Below, piece after piece: positions 40,017 through 42,737 of a DNA stretch of 64,000 nt; positions within the stretch are counted from its first letter, which is position 1, and each line of letters starts with the position of its first letter. The DNA lies in the NCBI RefSeq assembly GCF_011045215.1, contig NZ_CP049201.1. The stretch is one strand, 5' to 3'. The notes under the pieces were generated by a model, which did no database searches, had not been told where the DNA came from, and was given only the letters and a program-made list of their open reading frames with translations. A program made the position numbers and the translations under genes. The DNA is from Escherichia coli. GTDB lineage: Bacteria; Pseudomonadota; Gammaproteobacteria; Enterobacterales; Enterobacteriaceae.

Positions 40017-40445
40017 TCAGCCTTTACCCGTGAACGGGTCATCCAGCTTATCCAGACGTCTTTCTGCGTTGCGCAACACGTCCTGTGCTCCCGGGGTGGA
40101 TGCATATGCCTCCAGTTCAGCAGCAAGAGCCTGTTCCATTTCTGTTGCTGTCATGGCAGCAACATCGGCCGCAGAGCGGTTGTCGCGAATAATGAGGTAG
40201 CTGTGCAGGATATTAAGTGGTGCCACATTTTTATTGATGTTTTTCAGCCCCTGCTGAACCGCCAGCCAGTCGCCCAGCCACTGCAGGCGATACAGTTTGT
40301 GACGGTTGTAAGTTTCATTCGTTGTGTTACAGGCCATACGCCAGAACTCCTCAGACATGTTGATGAGCGTATTTTCACCTTCCGGCAGACTGAACGCAGC
40401 GAAGTCATCAATGCCGGACGGCAGTTGTTGATGATTTGTATTCAT
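40017..40445 (-). CDS. Hypothetical protein, member A of a small island-specific paralogue family (N-terminus MNTxxQLPSGI)
   Basis: 142 aa with SD AAGGA and an ATG. It shares RHKLYRLQWLGDWL and AADVAAMTATEMEQALAAELEAY with ORF B (DHKLAYRLCWLRHWL, PATVEQMTPAEISLALTDYWSEY). That is similarity at the protein level across diverged DNA. Confidence 0.55.
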   Translation of the reverse strand: MNTNHQQLPSGIDDFAAFSLPEGENTLINMSEEFWRMACNTTNETYNRHKLYRLQWLGDWLAVQQGLKNINKNVAPLNILHSYLIIRDNRSAADVAAMTATEMEQALAAELEAYASTPGAQDVLRNAERRLDKLDDPFTGKG

Positions 40446-40618
40446 GTTTTTTCCTTACTAAGTCAGAGTGTTATGAATATAAAGATGCTGTCCGTACCTT
40501 CTGACCGGGGTCGCCAAACTTGCCGGTCTGAAAACGTACAGACAGTTACCGGGATTTTACTCCCGACAGCTGTACGTCCGGCACCCTTTTTTCTTTTTTT
40601 ACATAGTCCGGTTTCTGG
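40408..40618 (+). repeat. Copy A of the ~210-bp conserved hairpin-rich intergenic element
   Basis: It aligns along its full length with 41414-41621 and 42530-42737. See findings for the helices. Confidence 0.85.
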
Positions 40619-40667
40619 CCCTGTGGGTCGGTATACCTGTTCCCGTTAAATGAGAAGGAGTGGAATC

Positions 40668-41165
40668 ATGAACCGTAATCCGTCTGAAAATCTGTCTGAA
40701 AACGCGTCCCGCCAGTTCCTGTCCCTGGCCTCGCCAGCAGAGGCTGCATGCCATGCACTGCTTCGTTTCATTGAACGTGAGATTCTTGAGAAAAATGCGC
40801 CTGAAGAGCAGGTCCGGGAACGTTGCAGGGTATTCACCACACTGCTTAATGAGGGATTTACTGCCCTGTCTGATAAGGCTGGGCAGAATTTAGCTGACCT
40901 CCGGGAACAGTGCCGGCAACTGGAGCATCACATCACCAGACTTGGAGATGAATGCAACGATGTTAATCGCAGAAGCGCAGAGATTACCCGCAACATCAAT
41001 CGGGCTTTCGATATGAACATAGCGCTTGATATTGCCAGTCGGTCATATAATTCAACGCCTTCTGGCTCGTCCAGTACTCACTCCAGTAGTCCGTCAGAGC
41101 AAGAGATATCTCAGCAGGTGTCATCTGCTCAACCGTTGCCGGGAGCCAGTGATGCTGATGAATAA
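40668..41165 (+). CDS. Hypothetical protein (coiled-coil-like N-terminal part, Ser-rich tail)
   Basis: Strong SD AAGGAG 7 nt before the ATG at 40668. The last ~170 nt overlap the convergent ORF B, so the C-terminal extent is doubtful. Confidence 0.45.
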   Translation: MNRNPSENLSENASRQFLSLASPAEAACHALLRFIEREILEKNAPEEQVRERCRVFTTLLNEGFTALSDKAGQNLADLREQCRQLEHHITRLGDECNDVNRRSAEITRNINRAFDMNIALDIASRSYNSTPSGSSSTHSSSPSEQEISQQVSSAQPLPGASDADE

Positions 41166-41448
41166 GCGCAAACTTAACGGCTTCCGGAATGCTGATGAAG
41201 CCATCATCCCGGAAAAACCAGTGGCGGCTGTGAATCAGCCAGTGTCTGAGCCAGCAGAGTCGGTAGGCGAGCTTATGGTCTGCGCCGGGAAAGATTTCAG
41301 TTCCCTGGTCAAAGAAGGTTTTACAACGTTCCACATCGTCGGGGGCCATGCGTCCGGCTTTCCAGTCTTCAAAGTATTTTTCATTGCTGTCAGTGACATA
41401 AGGACAGTTGTTATCAATGCCGGACGGCAGTTGTTTTTCTGTATTTAT
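40996..41448 (-). CDS. Hypothetical protein, paralogue B; the homologous start codon is ATA (possible pseudogene or downstream start at 41349)
   Basis: The frame is open for 151 codons: (I)NTEKQLPSGIDNNCPYV...MAPDDVERC.... SD AAAGGAG is present, but the position that is ATG in copies A and C reads ATA here. The first in-frame ATG gives the 117-aa ORF 40996..41349. Confidence 0.45.
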   Translation of the reverse strand: MNTEKQLPSGIDNNCPYVTDSNEKYFEDWKAGRMAPDDVERCKTFFDQGTEIFPGADHKLAYRLCWLRHWLIHSRHWFFRDDGFISIPEAVKFALIHQHHWLPATVEQMTPAEISLALTDYWSEYWTSQKALNYMTDWQYQALCSYRKPD

Positions 41449-41621
41449 AAAAATTCTCCTTTAAAACAATCTGTTATGAGTATGCGAATGCTGTCCGTAC
41501 CTTCTGACCGGGGTTGCCAGACTTGCCGGTCTGAAAACGTACAGACAGTTACCGGGATTTTATTCCCGACAGCTGTACGTCCGGCACCCTTTTTCCTTTT
41601 TTTACACAGCCAGGTTTCCGG
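41414..41621 (+). repeat. Copy B of the ~210-bp conserved hairpin-rich intergenic element
   Basis: Direct-orientation repeat of 40408-40618. Confidence 0.85.
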
Positions 41622-41675
41622 TTATCTGCGGGGAAGTGACGCACCTGGCGGGCTGAGAGATATGGAGGTGAAAGT

Positions 41676-42413
41676 ATGTCTTCCTCAGTGAAATATTCTC
41701 CGGTTCCGGCGGTCTTAACCCGCCCTGAATCGCTGGCTGAACTGAACCTGCTGATGACCCGGATTGCCAGTGGGTGTCGTGTGGGGCTTCCGGCGTCAGG
41801 TCGTCCGGTCATTGCGGTGCACGGTGGTTATGTTTCATACAGTTCTCCACGCACCGGACATGTTTTTCAGGACGGTTTCCGCCCGGAGACAGTGATGACC
41901 GTCAGTAACCGGGAACGGATGTGTGAATGGTTCAGTCAGGTCTGGCTTCCGTTGCATCTGGCTGCCCTTGAAGGCGATGAGAACGCTTTTTTCAGTGCGG
42001 AGGTCAACATGGTGCGCCGGGAGCTGCAGCGCGTTCCGGGGGATTCAGTGAACTGCATGTGCTGGGCAAGCCTTGCTGCACTGGCATTTGATGCTGAAGA
42101 GCGGGTGGAACGGCAGAAAGGCAATAATGAGAACATCGCAACATATGATGAGAGCATCGCGACATATGCATTCCGTGCTGCCTGCACTGTGAGTCGCTGT
42201 CTGAGCCGGAATGCTTCCGGAGGTATTCCGCGCTCATACCCTGAATGGAAAGCGATTTTGTTTCCCCGTGATGGTGCTGACATTTTCCCCGACGGGTGGC
42301 TGGAAAATATGACCCGTCGGGCTGAACGTGTTTTTACGAGTGCGAAACGTCAGTGTGGAATGCTCTCAGCCAGTCAGGCAGCGCTTTTTTCTCAACGTGT
42401 TGAAACGGAGTAA
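41676..42413 (+). CDS. Hypothetical protein
   Basis: 245-aa ORF with SD GGAGGTG 5 nt before the ATG. It contains a 21-bp tandem duplication (ENIATYD/ESIATYA) at 42129-42170. Confidence 0.6.
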   Translation: MSSSVKYSPVPAVLTRPESLAELNLLMTRIASGCRVGLPASGRPVIAVHGGYVSYSSPRTGHVFQDGFRPETVMTVSNRERMCEWFSQVWLPLHLAALEGDENAFFSAEVNMVRRELQRVPGDSVNCMCWASLAALAFDAEERVERQKGNNENIATYDESIATYAFRAACTVSRCLSRNASGGIPRSYPEWKAILFPRDGADIFPDGWLENMTRRAERVFTSAKRQCGMLSASQAALFSQRVETE

Positions 42414-42564
42414 AAGGATGAGCCGATTCAATACAGTTCGGGGGAAAGGGGTTACAGAGCCCGTCTTTTTCCGTCATGACCTTTCCGTTACTCAACAGCC
42501 AGAACTGCAGGGGGTATTTCACTTCAGATTCAATGCCGGACGGCAGTTGTTTTTCTGTATTCAT
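42334..42564 (-). CDS. Hypothetical short ORF, paralogue C (shares only the N-terminal MNTEKQLPSGIE)
   Basis: 76 aa with SD AAAGGA and an ATG. Beyond ~12 codons it is unrelated to A and B, and it overlaps the 3' end of 41676..42413 by 80 nt. It may be a remnant. Confidence 0.35.
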   Translation of the reverse strand: MNTEKQLPSGIESEVKYPLQFWLLSNGKVMTEKDGLCNPFPPNCIESAHPFTPFQHVEKKALPDWLRAFHTDVSHS

Positions 42565-42737
42565 AAATTTTTTCCTTTAAAACAACTTGTTATGAATGAA
42601 CGAATGCTGTCCGTATCTTCTGACCGGGGGCGGCAAACTCACCGGTCTGAAAACGTACGGACAGTTACCGGGATTTTATTCCCGACAACTGTACGTCCGG
42701 CACCCTTTTTCCTTTTTTCACATAGCCAGGTTTCCGG
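42530..42737 (+). repeat. Copy C of the ~210-bp conserved hairpin-rich intergenic element (directly upstream of dnaB)
   Basis: Direct-orientation repeat of 40408-40618. It ends 24 nt before the dnaB ATG. Confidence 0.85.

Follow-up and report, generated by a model that had tools for sequence, protein, structure and literature searches.

A covarying four-way-junction element and its reversed gene between parA and dnaB in SPI-7-type integrative elements

Three direct repeats in a 64,000-nucleotide stretch of the Escherichia coli contig NZ_CP049201.1 (assembly GCF_011045215.1; the whole stretch is called the window below, and its dnaB-sense strand the plus strand) are true copies of one conserved structured nucleic-acid element of about 190 bases, so far undescribed. 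They are located in an integrative and conjugative element (ICE) of the SPI-7/PFGI-1 class adjoining cadC (36137-37675), and each of them is a four-way junction, or "cloverleaf," of about 175 nt consisting of the helices P1, P2, P3, and P4 (Table 1). The fold is strongly favored on the dnaB-sense strand and encloses the start of a small minus-strand gene, here named geneX; element and geneX together are a reverse-oriented module inserted in the otherwise tight parA-(orf)-dnaB-parB operon of some SPI-7/PFGI-1-class ICEs. Our preferred reading, to which we give a probability of roughly 0.4, is that the element acts as an RNA cloverleaf within dnaB-sense read-through transcripts, antisense to the geneX start region. 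Elements of the SPI-7/PFGI-1/ICEclc class spread virulence and resistance genes among enterobacteria, and control near parA-dnaB-parB is largely unknown. The present element stands out by its unusually clear covariation, its strand specificity, a conservation above that of the surrounding proteins, and its overlap with an uncharacterized, fast-diversifying gene family.

Three copies of one covarying fold

A repeat search of the window returned one three-copy direct-repeat family (40411-40633, 41414-41636, and 42530-42752) with copy spacings of 1003 and 1116 nt, which bears out the three direct-orientation copies, about 1.0 and 1.1 kb apart, that an earlier sequence-only reading of this DNA had described. 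That reading took the copies for near-identical; in fact, the identity among them is 84 to 88% (by blastn, 84.5% for A versus B and 84.1% for A versus C). A 37-nt core has exactly 3 occurrences in the 64-kb window versus 0 expected. In a MAFFT alignment, the left border of the copies is sharp, at TCAATGCC, and the right border is found about 35 nt beyond a T6CT7 tract (T-tract); copy C ends 9 nt before the dnaB-PI ATG.

Each junction is closed by P1, a long-range helix of 16 pairs in which 98.9% of the cells are paired and 4 pairs are changed on both sides. The P1 core, TGCCGGACG (40412-20), is the reverse complement of CGTCCGGCA (40575-83) and is followed by one bulge and seven further pairs; the helix reads TGTCGGACG/CGTCCGACA in Proteus and GCCAGGCA/TGCCTGGC in Edwardsiella and Dryocola. 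It closes a 140-nt multi-branch, and the T-tract, which starts 3 nt after it, is not universal, being absent from Proteus-type copies and from an upstream Serratia copy. In P2, ATTCATAA (40439-46) pairs with TTATGAAT (40471-78); one lineage has the compensated form GTGTTCATAA/TTATGAGCGC, and 3 to 4 P2 pairs show double changes. P3 is a two-part hairpin with a conserved loop of 14 nt and contains the longest continuous helix arm of the element (21 nt). The sequence-only reading had already recognized both parts of P3 (40488-97/40536-45, with a C.A mismatch, and 40500-08/40523-31), the pairing CGGGA/TCCCG at 40550-54/40561-65, the T-tract, and the differences that set copy C apart from A and B (C.A to C-G in the first P3 helix, and ACAGTT/AGCTGT to ACAGTT/AACTGT), all of which are present; the second P3 helix also has one T.T mismatch. 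These hairpins are real, yet they make up only half of the structure; P1 and P2 were invisible among three similar copies, and only more distant copies revealed them.

For the comparative analysis, covariance model (CM) R1 was built from the P1-P4 structure, and 54 distinct copies were aligned. Standard pairs occupy 92.1% of the pair cells, versus 32 to 40% with the partners slid by 1 to 3 columns, and 15 pairs show both-side changes, versus 2 to 6 in the slid controls; the observed values are reached by 0 of 500 shuffles. Compensated pairs are present in every helix, and with the Serratia and Pantoea copies added, both-side changes are found in 17 of 46 pairs. The structural constraint suspected earlier from three copies is supported, in that the two P3 helices and the CGGGA/TCCCG hairpin covary in homologues instead of being broken at random. 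CM alignments are fitted to the model, and RNAalifold was therefore run on a plain MAFFT alignment of 15 diverse copies; from this unfitted alignment, P1 (12 pairs), P2, P3, and P4 were recovered independently. Full-length copy C also adopts this cloverleaf, with z scores, relative to dinucleotide shuffles, of -8.3 (RNA) and -6.8 (DNA).

The two strands are not equivalent. Wobble pairs of the G.T/G.U type occur in 27 pair columns on the plus strand versus 9 on the minus strand, or, in our own reading restricted to pairs with a Watson-Crick consensus, in 23 versus 7. The consensus-structure energy is -49.2 kcal/mol for plus and -43.7 kcal/mol for minus, with plus the better strand in 44 of 52 copies, and the RNAalifold consensus of the same 15 sequences has 44 pairs at -48.5 kcal/mol on plus versus 30 pairs at -28.1 kcal/mol on minus. 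The minus strand gives no P2 and little of the P1 extension and P4, while the P1 core and P3 are still predicted there. P3 is the exception to the strand bias; in the E. coli copies, the conserved C.A of this hairpin becomes a G.U when the minus strand is read.

The P1 5' arm is near-palindromic (TGCC-GGAC-GGCA, 40413-40424 and the same site in all copies), and a small local hairpin is possible there instead of P1. On the geneX-sense strand of a Pantoea locus (L118 3018-3033), the local hairpin of the P1 arm is followed by a U-run and was flagged as terminator-like. A loop-loop pseudoknot between P2 and P4 was considered and rejected as inconsistent between lineages, and a window search for a trans target of the conserved P3 loop matched only the element itself.

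A reversed gene within the parA-dnaB operon

Every copy carries on the minus strand the Shine-Dalgarno (SD) sequence, the ATG, and the first 12 or so codons of geneX, as the sequence-only reading had stated. Among copies read on the plus strand of their locus, the start codon stands at the same column and the open reading frame (ORF) begins with MNTxxQLPSGID in every case, the sole exception being window copy B (ATA). The sequence required for the fold begins about 130 nt upstream of the geneX ATG and reaches into the gene as far as codon 12: the P1 5' arm sits within codons 7 to 12 of geneX-A, the complement of the geneX start codon (CAT, 40443-45) is in the P2 5' arm, and the complement of the geneX SD is in the P2 loop. 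The motif TGTTATGAA, earlier taken for an extended -10, is actually the P2 3' arm, whose conservation is due to its pairing with the complement of the start codon on the minus strand. Since compensatory P1 changes alter the geneX peptide (G to D in Proteus), the shared geneX N terminus is explained by nucleic-acid structure and not by the protein; the ATG-to-ATA change of geneX-B keeps a U.G pair in P2.

Beyond these codons, three families of geneX proteins can be told apart. Those of family 1 have about 142 aa and the motif (F/Y)RLQWLGDWL and occur in Proteus, Serratia, and Pantoea as well; those of family 2 (150 to 158 aa) are distant relatives of family 1, and those of family 3 have 76 to 142 aa. 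Truncated geneX remnants are found in many copies. The window contains three successive geneX-paralogue cassettes, and the sequences upstream of P1 are unrelated between cassettes. Homologues of the intact geneX-A are 46 to 60% identical in Proteus, Serratia, and Pantoea and have the same synteny. As to the function of geneX and of the plus-strand cargo ORFs, Pfam and PADLOC gave sub-threshold matches only, a PDB profile search was empty, and the AlphaFold model (predicted local distance difference test score [pLDDT] of 46) was too poor to search with.

In Serratia (L117 3466-3651 and L121 3451-3642), a second, upstream copy is accompanied by a 41-aa geneX remnant; it lacks both the T-tract and a following plus-strand ORF, and the 3' end of an intact geneX directly follows it, which suggests a tandem duplication of geneX and element that later decayed. 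In the window, geneX-C and the 245-aa cargo ORF overlap convergently by 80 nt, and a weak terminator-like hairpin on the plus strand (42449-42472; GGGTTACAGAGCCC then GTCTTTTTCC) is located inside geneX-C, 36 nt past the stop of that ORF. Plus-strand shadow ORFs antisense to geneX (39897-40649, 41026-41691, and 42328-42768; 250, 221, and 146 aa) span the whole elements; a coding reading of them was rejected, because in the Proteus copy a stop codon interrupts the frame.

In annotated relatives, the element is always found between parA and dnaB-PI and is oriented as dnaB, and the ancestral module layout is parA, reversed geneX, element, dnaB. Relatives without the module have parA and dnaB overlapping or separated by a gap of <30 nt, or else a single co-oriented ORF (about 125 aa) between them. 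A CM search of 80 dnaB-PI loci (one genome per species, 185k species) found the element in 5 of them, comprising one E. coli-like locus and loci of Proteus, Edwardsiella, and Dryocola, and 75 are without it; the element is therefore not general to the ICE family. Co-occurrence with the gene is strict: geneX is present in 3 of 79 dnaB-PI loci, namely in the three loci outside E. coli that have the element. The Serratia and Pantoea copies were reached via homologues of the neighboring small gene. A context-blind pattern scan of metagenomes yielded 46 copies, 36 with dnaB-PI at most 1325 nt downstream on the same strand and the other ten at contig ends, and three IMG/VR "viral" matches represent the same parA-geneX-dnaB ICE module. 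Among 5426 complete E. coli genomes, 138 contain the element, at 217 places in total (1 to 6 per genome), all of them chromosomal and with 75 to 97% identity. Copy A had no match in 72,556 plasmid records (blastn, word size 11), and copy C had none in phages. A generic, genome-wide miniature inverted-repeat transposable element, which the sequence-only reading had named as an outcome that would refute it, is not what was found: the copies with enough flank are all within 1.3 kb upstream of dnaB-PI, tied to ICE genes, and a REP-type repeat dispersed through unrelated contexts is not indicated either. Nor was the element matched to a named RNA family, in agreement with the same reading; a scan with the Rfam 15 covariance models (cmscan of 36000-48000, both strands, E value up to 10) gave four chance-level matches, all outside the element. 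It keeps about 75 to 80% nucleotide identity where DnaB is 58% identical, and it is specific to the geneX-bearing subclade of SPI-7-type ICEs.

Three loci with copies deserve separate mention. The contig NZ_JBQPOM010000022.1 (L006), labeled Vagococcus sp. WN89Y, a Gram-positive organism, has the element and a DnaB-PI 98% identical to that of the window, which suggests assembly contamination or a mislabeled record. In E. coli FDN-4 (L123 1-5127), Mu-like prophage genes (Gam, Mor, and gp16) end at the expected left part of the element, and the P3-P4 part alone is left upstream of dnaB-PI. A partial copy at L002 7757-7946 has neither the P1 5' arm nor P2 and starts exactly at TTATGAG, upstream of a 300-aa plus-strand ORF; its junction creates a weak promoter-like pair, TTGTAA-16 nt-TACAGT, and it is the sole hint that the right half of the element alone may serve plus-strand genes.

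Promoter and terminator signals are scarce around the copies. A consensus scan of 39900-43000 on both strands found 0 sigma-70 TTGACA/TATAAT pairs with 16- to 18-nt spacing versus 2.1 expected, and neither strand showed a consensus sigma-70 promoter in or around the element. The terminator scan returned no site in any copy, and the parA-geneX intervals of Proteus, Pantoea, and E. coli gave no terminator-like hairpin. P1 plus T-tract was rejected as a terminator, since the tract is not universal and such a signal directly before dnaB would be counterproductive; a dedicated plus-strand promoter 5' of P1, giving a discrete small RNA, was likewise rejected, there being no conserved sequence at that place between cassettes. 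On the geneX-sense strand, the P4 tip reads TAAAAT, TAACAT, TAAACT, TAAGCT, TATTAT, TATCGT, or TATCAT; TAnnnT is present at this position in 14 of 19 distinct variants, with the inner three bases varying, and in 0 of 19 on the other strand. This motif, with the key positions of a -10 element kept, is a candidate for the -10 of a geneX promoter. On the geneX side, the T-tract is an A-tract that immediately precedes a poor -35 and may be UP-like. With such a -10, geneX transcription would start at the P3/P4 border, so the mRNA would be without P4 and the P1 3' arm; a geneX mRNA starting with the P3 hairpin fits the folding of P3 alone on both strands. The bidirectional promoter/leader cassette suggested in the sequence-only reading is matched in outline, in that the element is a control region from which a small minus-strand gene and plus-strand genes diverge.

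Table 1. Coordinates of the element, its helices, and neighboring genes in the window
Feature	Position (copy A where copies apply)	Copy B	Copy C	Strand	Remarks
Copy A, whole conserved block	40408-40633			+	Junction 40412-40583, T-tract, and right flank; CM R1, 215 bits
Copy B		41414-41636		+	Junction 41418-41586; CM R1, 215.6 bits
Copy C			42530-42752	+	Junction 42534-42702; CM R1, 221.3 bits
P1 5' arm	40412-40427	41418-41433	42534-42549	+	TGCCGGACG + GCAGTTG; pairs with 40567-40583
P1 3' arm	40567-40583	41570-41586	42686-42702	+	CAGCTGT, bulged A, CGTCCGGCA
P2 hairpin	40438-40480	41441-41483	42557-42599	+	Arms 40438-47/40471-80
P3, two-part hairpin	40488-40545	41491-41548	42607-42664	+	Helices 1 and 2 of the sequence-only reading
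P4 hairpin	40546-40569	41549-41572	42665-42688	+	
T6CT7 tract	40587-40600	41590-41603	42706-42719	+	
geneX-A	40017-40445			-	142 aa, intact, family 1, motif YRLQWLGDWL
geneX-B		40996-41448		-	Family 2; frame open for 150 codons; start ATA (ATG in relatives)
geneX-C			42334-42564	-	Family 3; 76 aa versus 131-132 aa in relatives, truncated
parA of the ICE	38422-39315			+	First gene of the interrupted operon
Cargo ORF, 165 aa	40668-41165			+	3' of copy A; no family match
Cargo ORF, 245 aa		41676-42413		+	3' of copy B; no family match
dnaB-PI	42761-44128			+	SPI-7-type island replicative helicase
parB	44125-45804			+	

Which molecule carries the fold

The fold has no promoter of its own and the operon must be read through to dnaB, and for these reasons we propose the dnaB-sense transcript as the folded molecule. 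In the RNA reading, dnaB would be expressed from the parA promoter, and the transcript crossing the module would form an intercistronic cloverleaf. Each copy would be the control region of geneX, with its probable promoter, leader, SD, ATG, and first 12 or so codons, and the cloverleaf RNA would by construction be antisense to the promoter-proximal geneX mRNA. P1 would close the fold, P2 would lock the anti-start codon in a stem while showing the anti-SD in its loop, and P3 and P4 would stack; P3 would also fold in the geneX mRNA, probably as a 5'-terminal hairpin. A long antisense RNA would in this way be held in a defined fold just 5' of the next ribosome-binding site, where it may act as a cis-antisense regulator or an insulator that balances geneX expression against read-through into dnaB and the plus-strand cargo, each cassette keeping the gene part required for P1 and P2. 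Such an arrangement would account for the tie to geneX, as the fold covers exactly the antisense RNA facing the geneX promoter, leader, and start. It would also account for the retention of the first 12 codons in new geneX paralogues, for the anti-start codon in the stem and the anti-SD in the loop of P2, and for the last copy always abutting the next plus-strand ribosome-binding site.

Several points weigh against this reading. We infer read-through from gene order and the absence of recognizable terminators, and the promoter assignment draws on a short motif with a poor -35. The sequences are related, which makes the cell counts overstate independent events, and strand-biased mutation could cause part of the wobble bias; in copy C taken alone, the minus-strand RNA folds nearly as well as that of the plus strand (-70 versus -74 kcal/mol). 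Full complementarity to geneX would come with any long antisense RNA, so that the need for a special fold is not self-evident. Moreover, G.T is the best-tolerated DNA mismatch and the fold calculated with DNA parameters is equally convincing, so the plus-strand bias does not separate RNA from single-stranded DNA (ssDNA).

In the main rival reading, the cloverleaf would be formed by ssDNA of the dnaB-sense strand, either transferred or displaced in rolling-circle replication of the excised ICE, and would serve as a single-strand initiation site or a non-canonical ssDNA promoter, a possibility that we take seriously although we think it rather unlikely. Synthesis of the complementary strand, or transcription, would start at the element and run leftwards, and geneX would be the first gene to be double-stranded or transcribed in the recipient. 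No promoter is required for such a fold, P1 to P4 are all on one DNA strand, and the strand-specific cloverleaf is the same with DNA parameters; repeated, co-oriented, hairpin-rich units of about 200 nt recall the Frpo/ssi repeats in the leading regions of plasmids (PMC11541004) and, for ICEBs1, the single-strand origin (sso) that PMC5812530 cites. In this part of the ICE, no gene class but geneX is templated by the folded strand, and geneX is diversified and often decayed, as anti-defense cargo tends to be; a priming site through which geneX becomes double-stranded before any other gene would make a coherent model. However, no stem contains a -35/-10 pair, the candidate -10 in the P4 loop would be on the template strand and unreadable by sigma-70, and an ICE-wide priming site is not expected to be absent from 75 related islands without geneX. 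The co-oriented ssb (55380-55913) suggests that the other strand is transferred, by analogy only with plasmids, in which ssb is read from the transferred strand (PMC11541004). Literature searches, with PMC5812530 and PMC6561031 among the sources, gave no usable assignment of an origin of transfer or a transferred strand for this ICE family and no transcripts at the locus. Unlikely to a further degree is the more specific proposal of a new single-strand initiation signal on the transferred or displaced strand, unrelated to Frpo in sequence and architecture, that would start synthesis of the complementary strand, or transcription, at each geneX paralogue and possibly serve establishment or anti-defense.

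If the fold belonged to the geneX mRNA, P1 would pair codons 7 to 12 with a segment about 130 nt upstream, and a long structured 5' leader would enclose the ribosome-binding site for translational control, be it as a thermometer, a riboswitch, or a protein-binding leader. The structure does span exactly the geneX start region and its upstream DNA, unrelated geneX paralogues are fused in frame after about codon 12, at the base of P1, and the helices still predicted on the minus strand (P1 core and P3, with its G.U) could be part of such a leader; nonetheless, we consider it doubtful, because the consensus fold of that strand is far weaker, with P2, the P1 extension, and most of P4 lost, the wobble columns favor the other strand, and an mRNA started from the P4-tip TAnnnT could not form P4 or the P1 3' arm. 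It is improbable that the helices are inverted repeats in double-stranded DNA bound by an ICE protein (ParB-type or a regulator dimer), with P1 as two operators 150 bp apart that loop the geneX promoter and with arms covarying to fit the same protein. The location between parA and dnaB/parB, the nearly palindromic P1 arm (TGCCG-GA-CGGCA), the overlap of the P1 3' arm with the putative -35 region, and the flanking of the putative -10 by P4 would suit such sites, but they leave unexplained why one-sided changes are overwhelmingly G.T-compatible on one strand and why five helices with loops of 6 to 26 nt all keep complementarity. We regard as very improbable the model of the sequence-only reading, in which the plus-strand ORFs and dnaB are transcribed from Frpo/ssi-type single-strand promoters or from ordinary promoters of the extended -10 type that have attenuator leaders. 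The plus-strand ATGs that it listed (40668, 41676, and 42761) are present, each copy being 38 to 92 nt upstream of a plus-strand SD and ATG; the L002 partial copy is kept upstream of a plus-strand ORF; and the alternative helix proposed for attenuation (40535-41/40570-76), followed by the T-tract, exists and pairs in 95% of cells. Yet this helix competes with the better-supported P3 and P1 and has one compensated pair, Proteus-type and upstream Serratia copies lack the T-tract, no plus-strand ORF follows one of the Serratia copies, and the presumed extended -10 is a P2 arm with A or G, not T, at its last position. Neither a consensus promoter nor homology to plasmid Frpo/ssi was found. By eye, the stems hold no Frpo-like hexamers in either of the possible template geometries, and no stem can hold both hexamers, because no helix arm is >21 nt. 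An Frpo for plus-strand genes, furthermore, requires a folded minus strand as template, whereas it is the plus strand that folds, which as ssDNA would be a template for the minus-strand geneX only and not for dnaB or the plus-strand cargo.

Relation to known systems and surrounding genes

Cis-antisense control over translation starts is exemplified by IS10 RNA-OUT/RNA-IN, FinP/traJ, SymR/symE, and ColE1 RNA I with its three stem-loops, and excludon-type loci have long antisense 5' regions. Like these RNAs, the element, whose RNA is putative, is structured, has several stem-loops with the anti-SD in a loop, is complementary to an opposite-strand SD and start codon, and belongs to a mobile element; both the complementarity to the geneX SD and start and the strand-specific fold were seen. 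It differs in size, being much larger (about 175 nt, closed by the 16-bp long-range helix), and it has neither a dedicated promoter nor a conserved one 5' of P1, so that its RNA would be part of an operon transcript and not a discrete small RNA. Integron attC sites are single imperfect hairpins of 57 to 141 nt. The element shares with them the character of structure-conserved, strand-specific folded sites separating successive same-orientation gene cassettes; in contrast to attC, its sequence is highly conserved (75 to 97%), its junction is branched, and it overlaps a gene start. No RYYYAAC/GTTRRRY core sites of the attC type were seen by eye in the element, and an integron integrase was not looked for.

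The sso sites of rolling-circle plasmids, ICEBs1, and Tn916 and the minus-strand origin of filamentous phages are orientation-specific multi-hairpin ssDNA structures of about 150 to 200 nt, a description that the element would match; an sso is situated on the strand that becomes single-stranded in transfer or replication. The element has no sequence relation to them, is linked to an accessory gene, is missing from the majority of related ICEs, and is present in up to three copies. The Frpo/ssi single-strand promoters of the F and ColIb-P9 leading regions (Masai and Arai 1997, described in PMC11541004) have, according to that paper, a -35 (TTGACA) and a -10 (TATAAT) 16 to 18 nt apart that are double-stranded in a long stem, with an upstream A+T-rich UP element. 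They resemble the element in that a conjugative element carries several homologous units of a few hundred nt, all in one orientation and rich in hairpins, with strand-specific folds and a small accessory gene beside each unit. Unlike Frpo, the element has no long stem with -35, -10, and UP, forms a four-way junction instead of one long hairpin, and has the start and first codons of its gene inside the fold; the two do not resemble each other in sequence, and dnaB and the plus-strand ORFs would need the opposite strand to fold. The element behaves like a cis-antisense/excludon-type arrangement or like an ssi/sso signal and is a member of no family tested.

As an RNA, the element would represent a large regulator, antisense or intercistronic, that is new, and it would explain how a reverse cassette can live inside an essential ICE operon; as ssDNA, it would give this ICE class its first described single-strand signal, and, should it be an initiation signal, the diversifying geneX family would be the first ICE function available in a new host. 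Asymmetric mutations (G.U versus A.C) offer a simple means to tell the acting strand, and the covariance model is ready for annotating these islands.

Farther along the plus strand, the operon region is followed by genes for an STY4528-family replication protein, PFL_4669, topB, STY4534, ssb, and pilL2. The end of the ICE that carries parA is about 750 nt from cadC; islands of this class are usually located at a tRNA gene, and ARAGORN found no tRNA gene in window positions 1-64000. Two small plus-strand ORFs without family match are located 3' of parA (window 39312-39942; L048 6585-6962; L021 6501-6944; L002 7537-7746). The one of about 125 to 129 aa is also found between parA and dnaB in Phytobacter and Xenorhabdus islands, and the other has paired CxxC motifs (CVGCGYSG...CSGCDAF) that are conserved between the window and L002. 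Also on the plus strand of the ICE backbone, an Rpn-family nuclease/ISNCY-like gene (55962-56894) separates ssb from the pil genes, which are followed by a gene for an IS21-family transposase (61592-63259).

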